64,000 nt of DNA from a virus. The stretch's first letter is position 1; each line of letters begins with the position of its first letter. The notes beneath the pieces are model-generated. The model ran no database searches. It had not been told where the DNA came from and worked only from the letters and a program-made list of their open reading frames with translations. A program made the position numbers and the translations under genes. The stretch spans positions 32,001 through 96,000 of IMG/VR virus record IMGVR_UViG_3300024262_000015; one strand, given 5' to 3'. Positions 3,090 through 47,003 of the stretch are shown here, piece after piece.

Positions 3090-4433
3090 ATGAACGAAGC
3101 ATCTCATAAATTGTTAGAACTCGCCCGTGCTGTAAGAACAGAGTCTTCCAAAATCTTAGCTGAAGCTGAAGGAAGTTCTGAATACCCAACTCTATTAGCC
3201 TCCTTGGCTTCTTCCGTAGACTTTTTGGAAGAGCAAGCTGCTAGTCTGGGCCCAAAAACTTCCGCTAAAGAGCGCCTAGATGCTCTGGTAGCATTGGCCA
3301 ATGTCTTTGATGAAAGCCGTGATACCGTCTTAATGAAGTATGCTGCTGTTTTAGATGATATAATTCTTGAAGAGGGTTTAAAAAAAAAAGAGGCGCAGTA
3401 TAGCAAATATAACTTCCCCGAAGGATTTAACCAACTTAAAGAACGATTAGAAAAAGAAAAGGTCCAAAAGCCGGCCGCTAATGACTGGGAGGCTATAGAT
3501 AAAATTCGCCACACCGATAGAACTCAAGAAAGAGAAAATAACTACGGTGGCGCTTATAAAAAGCAAGTTGATTTCGAACGTCATCCAGAAAAAGTTAAAA
3601 AGCAATATGAGGAGCAGGTCTTAAATTATCGACCCCTCCAAATGCCTTTAAGCACTCGCACCTGTCCTGATCATCCTGGTGCTCAAATGATGCGTGTAGC
3701 GGACAATACCTACCAGTGCTCTCTTGATCATCGTATCTATCCCTGGCAACAAGGATTTGTGACCTATAAGGGCAATGTCGTTCCTGGTGGTGATTTAGCT
3801 AACCAAATTAAAGATTGGGATTCAGGAGTGGGTCATTACCTCTTTCAAACCCGTGAATCTAAGTTAACGAGCGCTTCAGATATAAGTAGTCCTTTTACTA
3901 AAAAAGCTAACGAAGTCACACCAGAACAGGCATCTAAAGCTTGGGAAGATCTTAAGCCGGGCATTAAAGGAGTTGATAATGTCCAAACAAAAATTGATAT
4001 TGTACAAAAATTTTTGGACCAAAACAAAGGAGAAGGTCACAGGATTAATTTAGATATTGCTTCGGTAGATGATTCAGATAAAGAACTAGAAGAAGAATCC
4101 CTTTCTATGGAACAATATGTTTATCTAACTAATACAGGCAAAGAAGTTCTTAAAGAAGGTGAAACCGAAGAAAAGTTTCCTGATACACCTGCGATTAGGG
4201 CCATGGAGGATCATGGGTGGAAAATGAGTCTAGAAGGACTCATTGATATTTTAAATGATAATAAACCTAAAGACTATCCAGAATATAATGAGGCCAAAAT
4301 TACTGAAGAACTTAATGGACGCAGAGAAGACGATCCATTCTTCACTTTCGGGCCTAATCCAGATGAAGGGGAAAAAGAAAGCTCAGAAACAAGAGCCAAG
4401 AAAGACAGAGATGCCGAGGAGGGCGTTTGGTAG
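3090..4433 (+). CDS. Hypothetical head protein with Zn-ribbon-like motif
   Basis: 447 aa; STRTCPDHPG...YQCSLDH; SD AAGGA upstream. Confidence 0.6.
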   Translation: MNEASHKLLELARAVRTESSKILAEAEGSSEYPTLLASLASSVDFLEEQAASLGPKTSAKERLDALVALANVFDESRDTVLMKYAAVLDDIILEEGLKKKEAQYSKYNFPEGFNQLKERLEKEKVQKPAANDWEAIDKIRHTDRTQERENNYGGAYKKQVDFERHPEKVKKQYEEQVLNYRPLQMPLSTRTCPDHPGAQMMRVADNTYQCSLDHRIYPWQQGFVTYKGNVVPGGDLANQIKDWDSGVGHYLFQTRESKLTSASDISSPFTKKANEVTPEQASKAWEDLKPGIKGVDNVQTKIDIVQKFLDQNKGEGHRINLDIASVDDSDKELEEESLSMEQYVYLTNTGKEVLKEGETEEKFPDTPAIRAMEDHGWKMSLEGLIDILNDNKPKDYPEYNEAKITEELNGRREDDPFFTFGPNPDEGEKESSETRAKKDRDAEEGVW

Positions 4434-5176
4434 ATGTTGGAAAATTTACTAAAATTCTCAGGCACCCACAAAAAGATTATATACTAAGCGAGCTTCTGAG
4501 CGGTACTTCTCCAGAAAAAGTTAGCGAATTCTTAAGCGTTAAATATTCCGGAGATAAATCTAGAATTGTAGGCAAATCCCTTCTCAGAGAGTTTAGGGAT
4601 GACCACCTTGATCAATATAAATTTCTTAAAAAGGTTATTAAAGGTAGTGCCGAATACGACCGCAACTTAGCAGAATCACTACTCAAAAATGATGTCTGGA
4701 AAACGCGCTTAGCCAGCTTTGTTGATGATGAACTAGATATCAAAAAGAAGACTGTTGATCTAATTAAAATAGTCGAAAGCCGTGTAGAACAGGTCTTTGA
4801 TAAAATTCAACAAGACCCTGGAAATTACAAGGGCGACTATGTTTTAATTAAATGGTTTGAGCTATTATTTAATGCTTTAGAGAAATTAGATAAGTTTGTT
4901 AATGGAGCGGGTGATACTATCATACAAAATAACATAACGGTTCAGATGGTTGAGCAACATTCATTGGCCTTTCAAAAAGCTATTACTGAAGTTCTTACAG
5001 AGTTTGATCCTGTCATATCTACACAATTTTTAGATCTTTTAGCCACCAAGTTACAGACCCTGGCTCCTCCTCAAATAGAAGCACCTGTCCAGCATAATTT
5101 GACAATTGAAGAGAAACGTAAGGAATTAAATAAGGTTATAGCCACCTTTGAGGATGAAGAAAATGAGGAAGATTAA
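4427..5176 (+). CDS. Hypothetical helical protein, possible terminase small subunit
   Basis: N-terminal HTH-like segment (ILRHPQKDYILSELLSGTSPEKVSEFL) and coiled coil, upstream of terL. Function is inferred from position only. Confidence 0.35.
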   Translation: MVDVGKFTKILRHPQKDYILSELLSGTSPEKVSEFLSVKYSGDKSRIVGKSLLREFRDDHLDQYKFLKKVIKGSAEYDRNLAESLLKNDVWKTRLASFVDDELDIKKKTVDLIKIVESRVEQVFDKIQQDPGNYKGDYVLIKWFELLFNALEKLDKFVNGAGDTIIQNNITVQMVEQHSLAFQKAITEVLTEFDPVISTQFLDLLATKLQTLAPPQIEAPVQHNLTIEEKRKELNKVIATFEDEENEED

Positions 5177-7280
5177 TGATTATTTCAATAAGCAAATGGA
5201 AGCTCATGGGCCTTCCCTTCCTCGACATCTGTTAGAATCTTTTACGAGAGAGGCAGAAGTAATGTCTGAATTGGGAGTTAAGTGCCCAGAAGACCAGTCT
5301 CTTTATTTTGCTTTATCTCAACACGTTCCAGTTATTTTAAAAGAAATTGCAGCCGGGAACTTTGAAAAACAAGTAGCTAATTGTATTTGTGATGTTTTTC
5401 AAAAAAGAAAAGAACTTCCATTAAATAACTTAAGAGAATGGTTTTATTCCGTATCTAAAGTAGGAGACAAGCTAGGCATACCACTAAATTCAGGGGCAAA
5501 ACAGCTTCTTATAAGTGGGCCAACATTGCAAACAAAAAAGGAAATGATGGACAAAACAGCTTACCCTCAAGGCTCCATAGGAAAATATGTTCCTCCTCCC
5601 TATAATGTTTATAAGTGGGTTGAAGCCAGTCAGTCCTTACACATTCTAACCACCAAAATAGGCTTTAATGATGCGTTCGCCCAAGTTACTCAAGCTTGGA
5701 AAAATGATGAAATAGAAAGCTTTCAATACTGGCTAAGATTTTATGGCTCTGGCGAAGAAGTAAAGTACAAACTAGCTCAAGCCCAAATTCCTATAAACCA
5801 ATTGCGAAGTTCTCTACCACCCTCTACCATTTATCCTCCTCACATTCAGTCCCAGCAAGCAGCCCCGGCCCCCTCTTGTGTTATTGAACATACCCCTAAT
5901 GCTCGACCAATGTCTCCCGTACAGGTACAGTCTTTACGAGTTAAGATTGAAAACCAACGTCAGAAAATAATAAGTCGCTTAAATGCAGCCGAACGTTTGC
6001 TTACTACTCCTGAAGGCCAAATTTTTTGTGGAAACAGTTTAGGAGAGTGTTTAAAAATTCTCCATGAACTTAAACTTAAAATTCAAACGGCCCAAAAAAT
6101 AAGCGTGTCTTCAACTTTATTTGAAGATTTCATTTATCGAACAGCTAATTTATTAAAAGCCTCTGGACGCCCTAAGCTAGGTAACTTTTTTGTTAAAGTA
6201 GCACAAGCCCAAATTCCTGCCTCGCCTCCAGATGCAGCCCCTCCCTCAGACCCAGCAGCCACACCTGCTGGCCCTGGTATGGACGCCACCTTTCCTCCTA
6301 TGGAAGGAGACATGGGGCTAGAAGGAGAGGGTGCCTTTGCAGATGAGGAGCCAATGGATAAGGCACCTTCGGAATCTGAGGAAGAAAGCAAAAGCGATGT
6401 AGCCTCTAATACTAAAGGTGCTAATAAAGAGTTTTTTGCCAATCTTGAATCAGGTCCGGATATGTCTTTGCTTGATGACGAAGATACTCCCAGAAAACGC
6501 CATAAAAAAGCTGATATCGAAGTTACGGCTCAAGCTTTATTGCCCGGCCAAACCCAAAATGTTCCAACCCCTGTTCCTGCACGCGCCCCTCTTGCTGCAC
6601 CCGCTCCCCCACCGGACATTCAGGTTTCTGCACCGGCCGAAGAGGTTGTGGTTACTGAAACGGCTCCACTCCCCGGTGAAGAAGAAATAGTCGTAACAGA
6701 AACTCCTCCTGGTGAAGTAGATGAAGCTTTAGAGGCGGTTCTTTCTTCGGTTACTATTGAAGACGTACTTGAACGATTAGAAGAAGTCGAAGGAGAATTT
6801 AAACGTCGCGACACTGCAAGAAAACTTTCTATTATCGATCTTATGATGAATCGTCTTGGGATTGTTGGATTCTTCCCATCTTTAGGAGAATCAATGGGCA
6901 AGGCTTTAGAAGCAAACCAATACATCAGCACTCGCCTAGAAGACATCACCTCTCGTATCCGGGCTGCTGTAGAAGAAACTCAACAAACAGGACACCAGCC
7001 AAAGGTTCTTACTCCAGAAGCTAAAGCCTTGAGAAAAGAGTTCGATAGACAAGATGATATTGCTAACCTTCGACGTGAAAAGCGCCGAGCAAAAGAAGAT
7101 AAAAAGCTGTTGGGACCCGAAGCCGGACCCACAATGGAACAGCTTCAATCTGAACTTGCTCAACCCCTTAATGTAGAGGCCCCACCCGCTCCTCCAATTA
7201 ATCCCGGTGAACATGTGGCAACAGTTCCAATGACCGCTGCCCAAATAGCTCCACCGCCTGCACCAGTACCAGGAGCATAA
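5148..7280 (+). CDS. Pro/Glu-rich hypothetical head protein
   Basis: 710 aa; low-complexity linkers; KTAY, KLAQ, KVAQ and KKAD motifs. Confidence 0.6.
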   Translation: MRMKKMRKINDYFNKQMEAHGPSLPRHLLESFTREAEVMSELGVKCPEDQSLYFALSQHVPVILKEIAAGNFEKQVANCICDVFQKRKELPLNNLREWFYSVSKVGDKLGIPLNSGAKQLLISGPTLQTKKEMMDKTAYPQGSIGKYVPPPYNVYKWVEASQSLHILTTKIGFNDAFAQVTQAWKNDEIESFQYWLRFYGSGEEVKYKLAQAQIPINQLRSSLPPSTIYPPHIQSQQAAPAPSCVIEHTPNARPMSPVQVQSLRVKIENQRQKIISRLNAAERLLTTPEGQIFCGNSLGECLKILHELKLKIQTAQKISVSSTLFEDFIYRTANLLKASGRPKLGNFFVKVAQAQIPASPPDAAPPSDPAATPAGPGMDATFPPMEGDMGLEGEGAFADEEPMDKAPSESEEESKSDVASNTKGANKEFFANLESGPDMSLLDDEDTPRKRHKKADIEVTAQALLPGQTQNVPTPVPARAPLAAPAPPPDIQVSAPAEEVVVTETAPLPGEEEIVVTETPPGEVDEALEAVLSSVTIEDVLERLEEVEGEFKRRDTARKLSIIDLMMNRLGIVGFFPSLGESMGKALEANQYISTRLEDITSRIRAAVEETQQTGHQPKVLTPEAKALRKEFDRQDDIANLRREKRRAKEDKKLLGPEAGPTMEQLQSELAQPLNVEAPPAPPINPGEHVATVPMTAAQIAPPPAPVPGA

Positions 7281-8015
7281 ATGGATATCCGGTCTCTTCT
7301 ATCGACCATTGAAAGCACGGCACAAGAAGAGCAAACAGGAACTCCCTATATAGTAGGTGGGCTTCCTAGAGACCGTGTTTTAAACCGCTCAGAAGTTATT
7401 AAAGATATTGATATTACTACTGGAGATGCGTCGGTTCGAAGATTAGGCCGTGAAATATTTAGAGATCTAAGGCCTTTAGGAGCATCTTTTGAATCCTTTC
7501 CAGACACTCATTCTACAATTAAAGTTGGAGATATAAGCATTGATTTCTCCAGTAATTTAATTAACCCAGATGCAGGGTGGCTTCTTAGAGGGCGCGGAAT
7601 AAAAAACCCAACCTCTATGGAACTAGAACTTTACAGCAGAGACTTTACTTGCAACACCCTTCTCATGAGCCTAGATTTAAGAACCATTAAAGACGTAACT
7701 GAAGAAGCGATTCCAGATATTAATGCTCGTCTTTTAAAAACCTGCCTGCCTCCTCAATACACTCTGGGCTCTGATCCAAGACGTATCATAAGAGCAATTT
7801 ACTTATCATCTAAATTAGATTTCACTTTAGACCCGGTTATGGTTAGATGGATTCAGGCACATCCAGAAGAAATATCTAAAGATGTAAAGCCAGGTTTCGT
7901 TGATGGGGTTTTAGGAAGAGCACTTAGCTATAACCGCGCCAATACCGAAGCTCTTTTAGATGAGCTTGGAGTATGGAAATACATTCCCTCTTTAGAAGAT
8001 TTGGAGCTTCGATGA
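7281..8015 (+). CDS. Class II nucleotidyltransferase (CCA-adding/poly(A) polymerase head and neck only)
   Basis: YIVGGLPRD, DIDI, RDFTCN and DPRRIIRA motifs; only 244 aa, no HD or tail domain. Confidence 0.85.
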   Translation: MDIRSLLSTIESTAQEEQTGTPYIVGGLPRDRVLNRSEVIKDIDITTGDASVRRLGREIFRDLRPLGASFESFPDTHSTIKVGDISIDFSSNLINPDAGWLLRGRGIKNPTSMELELYSRDFTCNTLLMSLDLRTIKDVTEEAIPDINARLLKTCLPPQYTLGSDPRRIIRAIYLSSKLDFTLDPVMVRWIQAHPEEISKDVKPGFVDGVLGRALSYNRANTEALLDELGVWKYIPSLEDLELR

Positions 8016-42371: not shown

Positions 42372-43073
42372 ATGGCTTTAAGATTAGAACAGCCTGGCAT
42401 TCAACCGCTAGGACAATTTGATGGATACGACGACCAAATTGCTACCATTCTTGGTGGTGAAGTTGGAGCGATTGTTGGTATTCTAGTGAGCAATCCGGAC
42501 CTTGCTGCATCTGATGCGGACGGTTCAGATGGTTATATTGGTGCTCCTCCACTACAACGACGTACGATTATTACGCGAAACCTTGTTGCTTCCAACATCA
42601 ATAGGCCTCTAGGGCTTTTGGATGATGGTACGTCTACTGGCTTCTCGTCAACTGGTTACGGAACCCTTTTGGGTGTTGTGGTTGGTGGAACTGCTGGTCG
42701 CCAGTCCGTTGGAGGGGTCGTACTCGGTCCGCCCACCGCACTTGGTTCCGGTAAAATTACTTTCTGGGATAAGCCCGGTTTGTATGCCACCACGCTAGAT
42801 GCGGTTGATAGAGATCCGGTTGACGGACTTCTACCTTCCAACCTAAGTCTCACCGTTGGTTCGCCGCTCTTTGCTACGGATACGGGTCTTTTGACTCCTG
42901 ATGCTGCTGAGAGCTTCGAGGTAGGACTTGTTCTTGCTCGTTTCCTTGAATTCATGACTGATGGTTCATTGGTCAACACGCCGGTTAGCTTGGTAGCCCC
43001 AGTAACTGGCCCCGGATCGCGCCCGCAAACGTTCACCCGAGCGGTTTACGAGTTCTATCCGCCACGCACGTAA
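42372..43073 (+). CDS. Head decoration/cement-like protein (paralog 3), immediately upstream of the MCP
   Basis: PLGLLDDG, GSGKITFW, LFATDTGLLT; SD GAGGA. Confidence 0.7.
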   Translation: MALRLEQPGIQPLGQFDGYDDQIATILGGEVGAIVGILVSNPDLAASDADGSDGYIGAPPLQRRTIITRNLVASNINRPLGLLDDGTSTGFSSTGYGTLLGVVVGGTAGRQSVGGVVLGPPTALGSGKITFWDKPGLYATTLDAVDRDPVDGLLPSNLSLTVGSPLFATDTGLLTPDAAESFEVGLVLARFLEFMTDGSLVNTPVSLVAPVTGPGSRPQTFTRAVYEFYPPRT

Positions 43074-43079
43074 GGTGTC

Positions 43080-43124
43080 TTAGCCCCTTTGGGAATTAAC
43101 CTGGAGGGGCTAAACCCTTTTTTT
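43080..43124 (+). terminator. Terminator-like hairpin between the decoration gene and the MCP
   Basis: TTAGCCCCT...AGGGGCTAA followed by ACCCTTTTTTT. Confidence 0.55.
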
Positions 43125-43168
43125 GGCTGTTAACGAAAGTAGGCAGCTACTAACCAGGAGAAAAAAAT

Positions 43169-46100
43169 ATGAATATGTTTGATAACAAAGGGCAAATCAA
43201 CGCTGGGTCGTTGCAGGAAGCTCTTGGAACGATTGCGAAGTACGCATCGATTCTTGAAGAAAATCAGCCGTCCAATATGGCAATGGCTGGTACGCCGGGC
43301 TTTGATGAGCAGACCCGGAATGACCTTATCTCACGAGCTATGTTTACCCAAGACGGTAAGTATGCGCTTGCGCAGGTAATGGCCAATCCCAATTATTAGT
43401 AATAACGATTACGCAAATGGGATATAAAATCTGACTATATGCGGGAATTTCCGAAAGTTTTACCTACCCTGATATAAGATATAAAACGGCTAACCATAGA
43501 AGGTGGTCGTCTAGAGTCTGGGTAAGAATGGTAAAAATGAATGACGGGCAATCCGCAGGAAAGACAGACGTTAAAAAGATAGACTTAATAATTCAGCAAT
43601 ATGAAGCTGGATTGAAACCTAATAAGATTGTTGAAAACACTAATTATAATTTGGAAGATGTAATTCAAATTATAAAAACCAATCTTAAATGGGGGAAAAA
43701 TAAGTATCTTTCTAATTTAACTCAAGCTGAAGTTCAAGAGGTAATAAAATTATTTGATAATGGATGGCGTTTGAAATGCAAATTTCTTTAAAGTGAGTTG
43801 TAATTCAGTTACCCAACTTCTAAGATCAAATAATCGTAACCCTAGCTTTGAGTTATAAAATAATGCCTGAATCCTCAACGACTAATACGTCAGACATCCG
43901 GGAAAAAGATAGAACCAAGGGGTTTTTATCTAACCCGGTAATGATAGAGTCTGGTCCTTACAAAAATGTAAGGAGCTAAGCAGAAATGACTTAGCCAGTT
44001 CCCCTGAACTGTAACAAAAATGTTCGCCGTAACTTAGACTATCAGGGAGTGTTCCGTAGAGCACTAGTAGTCGATCCGTTAAATTAGGCAGCGGATCTAA
44101 AAATTGGCTGTATGCTGGAAAACCTAAAAGCTTCAATACTTTAACCTTAAAGCCCTTGCACTAAAGCAGGGTTAAATAAACTAAAGTAAAAATTTGAAGA
44201 TGATATAGACAATCAGCAGGAAAAAGATGAAAAACCCTAGCCTGGACAAAAAGCTTTTGAGAACCTTGTATGTAGAAAAGAAAAAAACTGCATATGAAAT
44301 TTCAGAGCTTTTACAAATAAAACAAGAAGTAGTTATCAACTCTTTAAAAGAGAATAATATTGATCACTCTCCTAAACTAAGAAAATATCGTTTAGTAAGA
44401 AAAGCCCCTTTAACTAGGGAACAAAAAGAAGCGATTATTGGGATGGTTTTGGGTGGAGGAAGAATTGTTTCTCATGGGAGTCGAAAAAAAACTTATCATT
44501 TAGAAACTTCTAATCTTGAAAAGGACAAAGATCTAATCCTTTATAAAAAAGGAACCCTCGGGAATCTTTGTAATTTGATAAGAGAAGAAGAAAAAAAAGA
44601 TAAGAAATTTTTAAAATTGATAACAGCTAATCACCAAGAGTTGAAATGGTACTCAGATTTATTTTATAACAACCATAAAAAAGTTATAAAAGAAAATTTA
44701 TTATACCATGTGTCACCTCGTTCGGTGGCTTTTTGGGCTATGGACAAAAGTTATATGCGAACTGAAGATAATCAATTTTGGATGCGCTTCAGTACGTATG
44801 AATTTTCAAAAGAAGAACATAAGTTGCTTCAAGCTATGTTAAAAATAAACTTCAATATAAGAAGTAAGGTTTGTGAATATAAGTGGAAGGGTAAAGTTTG
44901 TAATTACCTTTCTTTAAATAAACGCAACACTTTATTAATGGCCGAATTAACCGAGCCATTTTATAAAGAAGCTAACAGATACATAGTTCATCTTGATCCT
45001 CAACGACTAGAATGCCAATCTTCAGAAAATAAAAACTCTGAATGATGATACAGTCTGACCTTTACTGAGAAGTAAAGAGCCAAGCAGAAATGACTTGGCC
45101 TTGTAACAACCCCTGTGCCTCAGGGTGCTATTCCTCGCTATGACCGGGACATTGATGTCGCTGCGGTTGTCGTATCCAGCAATGGTGCGCCTCCGGAAAG
45201 CCGCGTATTCGGTGACTCGGTTATTGTTCCTGAATTCGAGATCGTTTCTAACCCGACCATCCGTACCTCTGAGGTTCGGCGTCGGCGCTTTAACGTAATC
45301 GACCGTGCTGTTCAAAAGGCACGTCAGGAAATCATGGCGCAGGAGGATGCGAATGGTTTTGCTTCACTCGATGCGGCAGCCGAAGTCGAAAATATCCCTC
45401 AGGATATTGCCGATAGCGGTCTTCTAAAGCGAGATCTTGCTGCGATTAAGCGGCAGGTTGACCATTGGGACCTAGTGACGACCAAGTTCTTCATGAACAT
45501 CAATGAGTTCACGGACATCCTTAACTGGGGTTCCGGTGGTGGTCAGGGCGCAACTGGTGGCGACGTTGATCCTGTTGGAAATCACTATAATTAGTGATAG
45601 TGGCAGCCTTAAGAATGTGAATTCTTTTGGAAAAATTTGGCTATATGCTGGAACCTCCGAATACCTAACAACTTTAAAGATATAGATTAGTCATTGAAGA
45701 CAATCTTTAAAAGATAAAGCAAAAGGTTAGGATGAAACGGACAATCAGCAGGAAAGTTAATGAAAATTTACCAACTAGCGAAGTTAAAAAACTTTTCTTT
45801 GAGGAAAATAAAAGCCGCTTAGAAATTGCCGAGATTTTTAATACTAATAGTTCTTCTATTTCAAAAATTTTGGGTCGGCCTCCCTACCCAAAAAACAAAA
45901 TAGAAGAAATAAAATCTTTGCATATTTCTCAGCTACAAAAGGAATTTATAATTGGCTCTACTCTGGGAGACGCTTCTTTACTTAAAAGAATTAATTTCAA
46001 AAATTGTTCTTTTAAAGTTAGCCATTGTGAAGCGCAAAAAGAGTACTTGTTATGGAAAGCTGATTTTTTAAATCCTTTTGTAAATAGTGTGGCGAGAAGT

Positions 46101-46901
46101 AAAGACAAAAGAGGAAACTCTATAATGTATGGTTTTACTTCATTAAGTCATCAGGACTTTTATCCCTTAAGAGAAATGTTTTATAAAGATAAAATAAAAG
46201 TTGTTAAAAAAGATATTCAAGCTTATTTAACTCCTTTTGCTTTAGCTATTTGGTTTATGGACGACGGTACGGTTTTGAGAAGTGATTGTAGGTTATCTAC
46301 CGACAGTTTTACTTATCAAGAAAACCAACTTTTATCTCAAATGTTAAAAGAAAATTTTGGGTTTAATGTTAAGGTTAGAAAATATATTAGAAATAATAAA
46401 CGTTTTAACTTCCTTTCTTTTACCCAACCTGACCGTCCTAAGCTTAGAGATCTCATAAAGCCTTTTTTGGTAGAATGTATGAGCTATAAGCTTCCTTAGC
46501 CTCCTCAACGACTATATGCCAAACATCTCGTTAAAGAGATGATGATATAGTCTGACCTTTACTGAAAAGTAAAGAGCCAAGCAGAAATGACTTGGCAGGG
46601 ATTTATCCCTTAACAAAAGTGTACGCAACGTGAAATTCTTCAGACTGGGCTTTATGCTCATCTCTGGGGTGCTGATATCATTGTTTCCAAGGTTGTTCCT
46701 CCGGGTACTGTCTTTGGTTGTGCTGACCCTGAGTTCGTAGGGGTTATGCCGATTCGTCAGGACATTGAAGTAATGCCTGCCGATGAGCCGAAACAACTCA
46801 AGCTAGGTTGGATCGTTTCTGAAGAAATTGGTATCGCAATCGTCAACCCGCGTGGTTGTTCCAAGGGTCTAAAGAGCTTGGTTATTAACCCCGCTCCCTA
46901 A
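43169..46901 (+). CDS. Major capsid protein (HK97-fold), join(43169..43391,44023..44079,45116..45575,46622..46901), 339 aa
   Basis: The exons join in frame: ...LAQVMANP-I-RRNLDYQGVFRRALVVDP-L-PQGAIPRYDRD...PEFEI...AQED...DP-V-TQREILQTGLYAHLWGADIIVS...GWIVSEEIGIAIVNPRG*. Total 1020 nt. Confidence 0.88.
43392..44022 (+). ncRNA. Group I intron 1 in the MCP (631 nt)
   Basis: Core elements CTGACTATATGCGGGAA, CAATCCGCAG, CCTCAACGACTA..CGTCAG and GATAGAGTCTG; terminal G at 44022. The 5' junction is inferred. Confidence 0.85.
43528..43857 (+). pseudogene. Degenerate intron-encoded endonuclease (HTH repeats only, frameshifted)
   Basis: QYEAGLKPNKI...; second HTH continues in another frame (KVSCNSVTQLLRSNN); no LAGLIDADG motif. 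Confidence 0.55.
44080..45115 (+). ncRNA. Group I intron 2 in the MCP (1036 nt)
   Basis: P1 GATCCGT/GCGGATC with a U-G pair at 44079; P10 AGGCA/TGCCT; TGCTGGAAA, CAATCAGCAG, CCTCAACGACTA, GATACAGTCTG; terminal G 45115. Confidence 0.92.
44227..45045 (+). CDS. Intron-encoded LAGLIDADG homing endonuclease (motifs degenerate)
   Basis: HTH plus IIGMVLGGG and VAFWAMDKS; the usual acidic residues of GDG/MDDG are partly lost. Confidence 0.8.
   Translation: MKNPSLDKKLLRTLYVEKKKTAYEISELLQIKQEVVINSLKENNIDHSPKLRKYRLVRKAPLTREQKEAIIGMVLGGGRIVSHGSRKKTYHLETSNLEKDKDLILYKKGTLGNLCNLIREEEKKDKKFLKLITANHQELKWYSDLFYNNHKKVIKENLLYHVSPRSVAFWAMDKSYMRTEDNQFWMRFSTYEFSKEEHKLLQAMLKINFNIRSKVCEYKWKGKVCNYLSLNKRNTLLMAELTEPFYKEANRYIVHLDPQRLECQSSENKNSE
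45576..46621 (+). ncRNA. Group I intron 3 in the MCP (1046 nt)
   Basis: P1 CTGT/GCAG with a U-G pair at 45575; TGCTGGAA, CAATCAGCAG, CCTCAACGACTA, GATATAGTCTG; terminal G 46621. Confidence 0.92.
45732..46499 (+). CDS. Intron-encoded LAGLIDADG homing endonuclease
   Basis: IIGSTLGDASL and LAIWFMDDG; LSTDSFT; MSYKL C-terminus. Confidence 0.9.
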   Translation: MKRTISRKVNENLPTSEVKKLFFEENKSRLEIAEIFNTNSSSISKILGRPPYPKNKIEEIKSLHISQLQKEFIIGSTLGDASLLKRINFKNCSFKVSHCEAQKEYLLWKADFLNPFVNSVARSKDKRGNSIMYGFTSLSHQDFYPLREMFYKDKIKVVKKDIQAYLTPFALAIWFMDDGTVLRSDCRLSTDSFTYQENQLLSQMLKENFGFNVKVRKYIRNNKRFNFLSFTQPDRPKLRDLIKPFLVECMSYKLP

Positions 46902-46925
46902 GATCAATAGGTAAGAACGAAAGAT

Positions 46926-46960
46926 GAAAAGGCCTGGGTGTTCCCAGGCCTTTTCTTTTG
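46926..46960 (+). terminator. Intrinsic terminator after the MCP
   Basis: GAAAAGGCCTGGG-TGTT-CCCAGGCCTTTTC followed by a T-rich tail. Confidence 0.9.
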
Positions 46961-46980
46961 TTTTCTGCAAACACCCAGGT

Positions 46981-46994
46981 CAATATAAAGGTAT
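46981..46994 (+). promoter_or_regulatory. Representative copy of a candidate late promoter, AATA-N5-RNRT
   Basis: CAATA TAAAG GTAT; similar elements precede many genes (see findings). Confidence 0.5.
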
Positions 46995-47003
46995 AAAAAG
47001 GAA

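Follow-up and report, generated by a model that had tools for sequence, protein, structure and literature searches.

How is a major capsid protein made from a gene whose coding sequence is broken three times by stop codons and changes of frame? This question is raised by a gene on the plus strand of IMG/VR virus record IMGVR_UViG_3300024262_000015, a 139.6-kb record with a CheckV completeness of ~33%. We analyzed bases 32001-96000 of the record, a stretch of 64,000 nucleotides (nt) that we call the window and in whose numbering positions are given below. An initial annotation, made from the letters alone, proposed that the gene is split by three group I introns. We consider it very likely that the locus is a late HK97-fold capsid gene of a phage-G-like jumbo phage into which three introns from a single mobile group I family have inserted, at the highly conserved codons Ile75, Leu94 and Val247 (Table 1).

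A 76-amino-acid (aa) open reading frame (ORF) begins at 43169, and tblastn with gp27 of Bacillus phage G (major head protein, 282 aa) returned four colinear pieces on the plus strand: residues 7-33 at 43310-43390, 34-53 at 44022-44081, 48-200 at 45100-45585 and 197-278 at 46620-46865. With the exon 3 translation as query, we found 1307 longer proteins at E <= 0.001. Nearly all of the 120 that were listed are 321-357 aa long, with 78-86% identity to exon 3; contigs of up to 480 kb carry some of them. Exon joins were fitted to eight homologs and to a 15-sequence alignment. Joined by script, the four exons form 1020 nt that encode a 339-aa ORF with 0 internal stops and a terminal stop, and the exon boundaries and lengths of the initial annotation proved exact. 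Alignment to intronless homologs, which that annotation had named as a check, runs straight across the joins: the product is 82.8% identical to the intronless 337-aa homolog P0001 with 0 gaps over 337 aa, so that precise removal of the three inserts restores a frame colinear with intronless alleles. Identity to seven other homologs is 75.7-77.3%, and to phage G gp27 53% over 281 aa. At the junctions the sequence reads LAQVMANP(I)RRNLDYQG, RRALVVDP(L)PQGAIPRY and ATGGDVDP(V)TQREILQT, where the residue in parentheses comes from the split codon; the restored residues I75, L94 and V247 are each invariant in 15/15 aligned homologs.

The identity of the protein follows from its homologs. A profile built from intronless ones matches PDB 6wkk_A ("Gp27 major capsid protein") over positions 44-328, with an E value of 4e-104; the structure of the phage G gp27 capsid has been solved (PDB 6wkk), and the gp27 match is annotated as major head protein in the phage G and Tunturi_5 records. 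The gene is therefore an HK97-fold major capsid gene of the phage G gp27 family, in line with the initial assignment. A Pfam-A scan found no capsid family for the exon translations or P0001, and blastn in distant mode found no match for 43100-47000 among 50,697 phage records. As for the program-made ORF list, in which exons 2 and 4 had been described as invisible, the statement holds for exon 2, since no plus-strand ORF of at least 30 aa covers it, and only in part for exon 4, the last 156 nt of which form a 51-aa ORF at 46746-46901.

The inserts themselves carry the marks of group I introns. In a 4.1-kb search at relaxed thresholds, the Rfam model RF00028 matched the 3' part of intron 3 with 47.6 bits (E 3.4e-10) and that of intron 2 with 32.7 bits (E 1e-5). 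These E values and the gap-free alignment to P0001 put the arrangement far beyond chance. The three introns have a 5' block in common (guide sequence, A-rich joiner, P3, P4, P5 and P4') and a 3' block (CCUCAACGACUA, P3', P8, P7', P9 and P9.1), and in each of them the ORF lies between two GG/CC pairs that open P6. The proposed common ancestry is supported by a 5' core (P3/P4/P4') and a 3' core (J6/7-P7-P9.1) present in all three. A longer string said to be common to introns 2 and 3 is indeed found at 45053-45100 and 46550-46597, with one base differing. Base composition separates the two kinds of sequence, with a GC fraction of 0.506 in the exons versus 0.318-0.338 in the introns. Using nhmmer profiles built from the window's three copies, we searched the window and 191 fetched loci (L-numbered) and found 29 5' domains and 52 3' domains, which pair into 28 introns, 4 of them without an ORF. 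The 3' block motif was found in 29 IMG/VR loci, and within the 139.6-kb record the family is confined to the three capsid introns.

Across the 28 introns, P3 and P5, which span the ORF, covary, as do P8, P9 and P9.1, and P4 and P7 are nearly invariant. RNAalifold, run on 31 3' domains, predicts P7, P8, P9 and P9.1, with 14/22 pairs changed on both sides; 95.0% of alignment cells are paired, a value that drops to 28.4-38.9% once partners are shifted by 1-3 columns, and 0/500 shuffles match the observed pairing values on any measure. Of the window's three copies intron 1 diverges most, and it differs by double-sided compensatory changes in P3 (TCTGAC/GTCAGA versus TTTGGC/GCCAAA), in P4 (TGCGG/CCGCA versus TGCTG/CAGCA) and also in P9 and P9.1, which argues that its fold is still under selection. 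Together, the Rfam matches, the nhmmer family searches and the covariation support the idea that the three inserts are homologous group I introns, as first proposed.

Related capsid genes contain introns of the same family. Of 255 IMG/VR capsid loci, the best 80 were covered. A capsid match is present in 30/109 loci (L083-L191), and the intron lies inside a capsid homolog in 13 of the 29 motif loci. In conserved blocks of the capsid gene there are no fewer than five insertion points, around residues 71, 74-76, 94, 163 and 247 (Table 1); close relatives have different introns at the same site, and micro-exons range from 57 down to 12 nt. The protein P0121, one of 12 fragments that end at site 3, is 98% identical to window exon 3 and is followed by a different intron there. 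The three codons interrupted in the window are also interrupted by introns in L117. L118, nearly its twin, matches L117 at 99.5% identity over 4.5 kb downstream and lacks exactly the 288-nt ORF-less site-1 intron that L117 carries at 2027-2314 (CCCAT^T, with ^ marking the insertion point). L117 and L118 are therefore a natural plus/minus pair of intron alleles at site 1. In L110 (minus strand, ~4640-1800) three introns crowd into the first 94 capsid codons: a 12-nt micro-exon, GGCAAATCCCAT, separates a 265-nt ORF-less intron from an 1181-nt intron, beyond which come a 56-nt exon and a 306-nt ORF-less intron. The conceptual L110 product is 336 aa long and aligns to P0001 with 0 gaps. L115 has a four-exon capsid gene at 3395-7844 (residues 1-71, 72-94, 94-163 and 164-335), with an intron at residue 163/164, a site unused in the window. 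The protein alignment is invariant in the blocks that contain the insertion sites, as expected for targets of homing endonucleases.

We then placed the splice sites. Introns 2 and 3 are preceded by U, and all three introns end in G (G44022, G45115 and G46621), directly before the exon bases needed to restore the homolog sequence. At intron 2 the exon end GAUCCGU pairs with the guide GCGGAUC, with a U44079.G wobble at the splice site and a P10 of UGCCU/AGGCA. At intron 3 the exon end CUGU pairs with the guide GCAG, with a U45575.G wobble and a P10 of three pairs. Read in the frame of the upstream exon, a stop codon is reached 2, 2 and 6 codons into introns 1, 2 and 3; such an early in-frame stop after the 5' splice site is a design known from T4 introns.

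Intron 1 requires a closer look. Group I introns almost always cleave after U, and the U.G pair at the 5' splice site is near-universal. A G that stands 7 nt upstream of the UAAAAU joiner is seen in 14 of the 28 family introns; it faces a U preceded in the exon by a perfect six-base complement. Intron 1 has U43418 at this wobble-G position; the helix is AUCCCA/UGGGAU and the opposite base is A43391. We place the cut after A43391 because two independent lines, protein conservation and helix register, agree on it: the A43391 join is the one that gives the invariant ANP-I-RRNLDY, and UGGGAU stands in the register of the wobble G of the 14 family members. A cut after U43394 is the most serious alternative, and we regard it as unlikely. 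It would fit the near-universal U, and the join, 3 nt downstream, is in frame and stop-free; the protein would be 340 aa long and read ANPNFRRNLDY for ANPIRRNLDY. By eye, pairing of U43393 and U43394 with the two A's immediately 5' of the guide sequence is feasible, and a U.G can also be drawn in a 4-bp AAUU/GAUU alternative at 43415-43418. However, I75 is invariant in 15/15 homologs with no length variation at this point, the register of the family places the cut opposite A43391, and the two A's are the predicted P10 partners of the UU of exon 2.

Several observations weigh against the view that three mobile introns of one functional family occupy the gene. Because the record is a fragment assembled from a metagenome, the genome may be defective. 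At Rfam gathering thresholds the whole window gave 0 matches: no window copy reaches the 50-bit gathering score of RF00028, and even at E up to 10 intron 1 is not matched, so that the covariance-model check suggested at the outset succeeded for introns 2 and 3 at relaxed thresholds and failed at the 50-bit level and for intron 1. The fifth P7 pair is non-standard in introns 1 and 2, P1 of intron 3 shows by eye just four clear pairs, and the splice-site pair of intron 1 is A43391-U43418 and not U.G, the sole case in the family set examined. Finally, nuclease activity of the intron 2 ORF product is doubtful, because both acidic residues of its motifs seem to be lost. The low Rfam scores most likely come from the 300-800-nt ORF inserts in P6, which the covariance model is unable to bridge. 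Three ORF-less family members exceed the 50-bit cut-off, with 74.9 and 72.1 bits for two introns in the L110 capsid gene and 56.5 bits for one in L098.

The same features could mean that intron 1 is decaying and splices poorly or not at all, in a genome that is defective or depends on a helper, for example a LAGLIDADG maturase. The A-U splice-site pair, the weakened P7, the lack of an endonuclease and of an Rfam match would all fit, as would the presence of just an 87-aa ORF unrelated to the other two. Exact junction patterns of intron 1 and intron 3 gave 0 matches each in IMG/VR, and the guide sequence and P3 pattern of intron 1 gave 0 in JGI metagenome contigs; the lack of a second copy of the intron 1 junction leaves room for an assembly error or a crippled intron. 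We nevertheless judge decay improbable: the compensatory changes in P3, P4, P9 and P9.1 argue for continuing selection, the exons are intact, without a frameshift and 83% identical to intronless homologs, and a phage could not survive with a capsid gene that fails to splice. Going beyond a working intron 1, we offer a two-part proposal that is tentative and rather unlikely: that intron 1 is functional with a Watson-Crick A-U 5' splice site positioned by the register of the helix, 7 nt upstream of the UAAAAU joiner, and that the capsid gene of this clade is a battleground of homing elements whose endonucleases are not merely selfish and may serve competition between co-infecting phages.

Even less credible, and in our estimate very improbable, is that the inserts are not introns at all and are instead free-standing endonuclease genes by which the capsid gene is divided into pieces translated separately, or else inteins or an artefact of assembly; splicing is itself an inference, and elsewhere related LAGLIDADG genes stand free downstream of uninterrupted capsid genes, but exon 2 consists of 19 codons without a start codon or ribosome-binding site, covarying conserved ribozyme cores flank every ORF, and the architecture repeats in independent contigs, including ORF-less introns that pass Rfam. 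Inteins are ruled out by the frame changes and stop codons at every join. Frameshifting and a split gene were likewise rejected, given these stops and frame changes and the ribozyme cores.

Returning to the three introns, we examined the ORFs that they carry. The intron 2 ORF matches the Pfam family PF03161 (LAGLIDADG_2) with 84.3 bits (85.2 in the whole-record scan) and the intron 3 ORF with 131 bits (132.1), at a cut-off of 25; the two are 27% identical (E 1e-20) and are the only LAGLIDADG_2 genes in the 139.6-kb record. A LAGLIDADG endonuclease has two motifs, each with a terminal catalytic acidic residue. Judged by eye on the pairwise alignment, the intron 3 ORF has LGDASL and FMDDGT, with the acidic residues present, and the intron 2 ORF has LGGGRI and AMDKSY, in which both appear to be replaced. 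The product of the intron 2 ORF may accordingly be nuclease-dead or maturase-like. By eye, the start codon of this ORF lies inside a predicted P6 stem (AAGAUGA/UCAUCUU, 44215-44233 and 44978-44996), and its translation could be coupled to unfolding of the intron. The 87-aa ORF of intron 1 does not encode a LAGLIDADG protein and showed no BLASTP similarity to the two LAGLIDADG ORFs. Its Pfam and PHROG matches were all sub-threshold, and helix-turn-helix features of a protein atlas matched at 0.88, under the 0.9 bar; it may, as a lead only, be a small protein of the helix-turn-helix type.

Genes related to the intron 3 LAGLIDADG gene were also seen ~150-330 nt downstream of uninterrupted capsid genes in L112, L113, L151, L161 and L162, and the same arrangement recurs in L170, L176, L177, L184-L187 and L191. 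The nhmmer profiles found no intron core at these downstream genes, which may be free-standing endonucleases beside their target gene.

From these data we infer the following course of events, including the order of the splicing steps. A single ~3.8-kb transcript would run between the two terminator-like hairpins, and ribosomes reading beyond a 5' splice site would stop within 2-6 codons. Each intron would fold as a P1-P9 ribozyme, with the guide sequence pairing with the last 4-7 exon bases. Free guanosine would attack the 5' splice site; the freed exon end would then attack after the intron's terminal G. Ligation of the four exons would yield the 1020-nt messenger RNA and from it the 339-aa capsid protein. 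The LAGLIDADG ORFs of introns 2 and 3, looped out of P6, are predicted, from their family membership and from the plus and minus alleles, to encode endonucleases that would cut intronless capsid alleles of co-infecting relatives, and repair after cutting would spread the intron. Intron 1, with its 87-aa ORF only, probably has no endonuclease of its own.

How unusual is such a gene? The initial annotation gave it as established that phage group I introns were classically found in DNA-metabolism genes. This is historically fair, but the surprise was overstated because introns in phage capsid and other structural genes, and an exon of 23 nt, have already been published. A close parallel is orf142 of Staphylococcus phage Twort, which is described as having three introns of group I, among which two are highly similar and flank a skippable 23-nt exon (PMC10136302, PMC11878797). 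According to the second of these accounts orf142 encodes a tail tube protein and not a capsid protein (PMC11878797), and exon skipping in Twort was shown by reverse-transcription PCR (RT-PCR) (PMC10136302, PMC11878797). The LAGLIDADG ORFs of introns 2 and 3 are a further difference from the orf142 introns.

Introns in capsid genes are reported as typical of Delta-group crAss-like phages, and one Zeta-group capsid gene is described in five fragments, with 3/4 spacers encoding intron-type domains (PMC7886860). As in the window, the intron-encoded proteins of these phages include LAGLIDADG; unlike the window, they belong to a different order with an unrelated capsid sequence, and their introns were recognized by protein domains (PMC7886860), whereas for the window we worked out ribozyme cores, guide sequences and exact junctions. 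In mycobacteriophage LittleE, too, an intron interrupts an HK97-type capsid gene, the 5' splice site follows a U and the intron terminates in G; unlike in the window, there is just one intron, and an HNH gene lies on the other strand. Splicing of the LittleE intron was proven by RT-PCR and N-terminal protein sequencing, and the same paper cites a capsid-gene intron of lactococcal phage Tuc2009 (PMC3706429). Jug jumbo gut phages (360-402 kb) are reported to have a mean of 18.5 group I introns per genome, in essential genes, with metatranscriptome reads supporting the splicing of 37/76 predicted introns; among the host genes that it names are terL, nrdD and DNA polymerase genes, compared to the capsid gene in the window (PMC12880540). 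The PhiPA3 gp210 intron endonuclease is a different enzyme in a different host gene (PMC11620839); by analogy with it, we hypothesize that the window locus may have a role in competition. For phage G, the account available to us notes a self-splicing intron in the DNA polymerase gene only (PMC7824862). Within the library that we searched, no paper on capsid-gene introns in phage-G-like phages was found. Multi-intron structural genes of phages are already in print, and the window arrangement has precedents.

The locus matters first for annotation. What gene callers recover from such a capsid gene is a set of fragments, and many database "proteins" of this capsid family, 87-279 aa long, look like such fragments; among the 120 listed proteins, 12 end at site 3 and most of the others begin near sites 1-2. 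Such genomes will be missed or wrongly scored when phage classification and completeness estimates rely on the capsid. Second, three ribozyme reactions flanking a 19-codon exon would be needed to produce the virion's most abundant protein, in keeping with the dependence on three self-splicing events that the initial annotation suggested. If exon 2 were skipped (43391 joined to 45116), the junction would form an in-frame AUG codon and the protein would lose 19 aa; Twort orf142 is a documented case of an exon being skipped between similar tandem introns (PMC10136302). The locus is thus a natural system for the study of splice-site fidelity between near-identical tandem group I introns and could serve to test capsid-targeting homing endonucleases in phage-phage competition. 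Should the A-U splice site of intron 1 be functional, the U.G rule would have a rare exception in nature. For specialists, this site, the heavy colonization of the capsid gene across the clade and the fact that skipping of exon 2 would preserve the frame are the noteworthy points.

Table 1 Features of the interrupted capsid gene in the window, followed by intron insertion sites in it and in related capsid genes (^ marks the insertion point)
Feature	Position	Strand	Details
Terminator-like hairpin	43080..43113	+	After upstream gene 42372-43073; start of capsid transcription unit
AGGAG ribosome-binding site	43156..43160	+	8 nt before ATG 43169; read from sequence
Exon 1	43169..43391	+	223 nt; ends ...GCC AAT CCC A
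Intron 1	43392..44022	+	631 nt; GC 0.338; last base G44022; in-frame stop 43397-43399
Intron 1 guide UGGGAU	43418-43423
Intron 1 P3 5' strand	43430-43435
Intron 1 P4 5' strand	43440-43444
Intron 1 3' core	from 43873
ORF in P6 of intron 1	43528..43791	+	87 aa
Exon 2	44023..44079	+	57 nt; 19 codons; product (I)RRNLDYQGVFRRALVVDP(L)
Intron 2	44080..45115	+	1036 nt; GC 0.320; last base G45115; in-frame stop 44085-44087
Intron 2 guide GCGGAUC	44091-44097
Intron 2 3' core	from 44998
LAGLIDADG_2 ORF in P6 of intron 2	44227..45045	+	272 aa
Exon 3	45116..45575	+	460 nt
Intron 3	45576..46621	+	1046 nt; GC 0.318; last base G46621; in-frame stop 45592-45594
Intron 3 guide GCAG	45603-45606		Followed by an extra P2 hairpin
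Intron 3 3' core	from 46503
LAGLIDADG_2 ORF in P6 of intron 3	45732..46499	+	255 aa
Exon 4	46622..46901	+	280 nt including stop
Terminator-like hairpin	46926..46955	+	13 pairs, then T run; 25 nt after capsid stop codon
Insertion at M71	AT^G		L100, L110
Insertion at P74/I75	CCU^AUU		L111
Insertion at I75	A^UU		Window only
Insertion at I75	AU^U		L110, L117, L085 (L085: 3' junction only, 5' side cut off)
Insertion at R76	CGU^		L103, L114
Insertion at L94	As window site 2		L083, L088, L093, L096 and L101 (3' part only), L100, L107, L110, L111, L115, L117, L118
Insertion at residue 163/164	Not to the base		L115
Insertion at V247	GU^U		L117, L118 and 12/120 listed fragment proteins

Some minor observations concern the gene, its surroundings and phage G. 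In a check of synteny, the 233-aa ORF upstream of the capsid gene showed no similarity to the phage G decoration gene gp26. The P9.1 hairpins score as terminator-like on the minus strand (43974-43996, 45078-45100 and 46576-46596); these scores are a by-product of the RNA structure and mark no terminator. In phage G itself (L001 1-1090, genes 22/23) the endolysin coding sequence is annotated as two joined pieces, so that this phage, too, has an interrupted gene near its intronless capsid gene.

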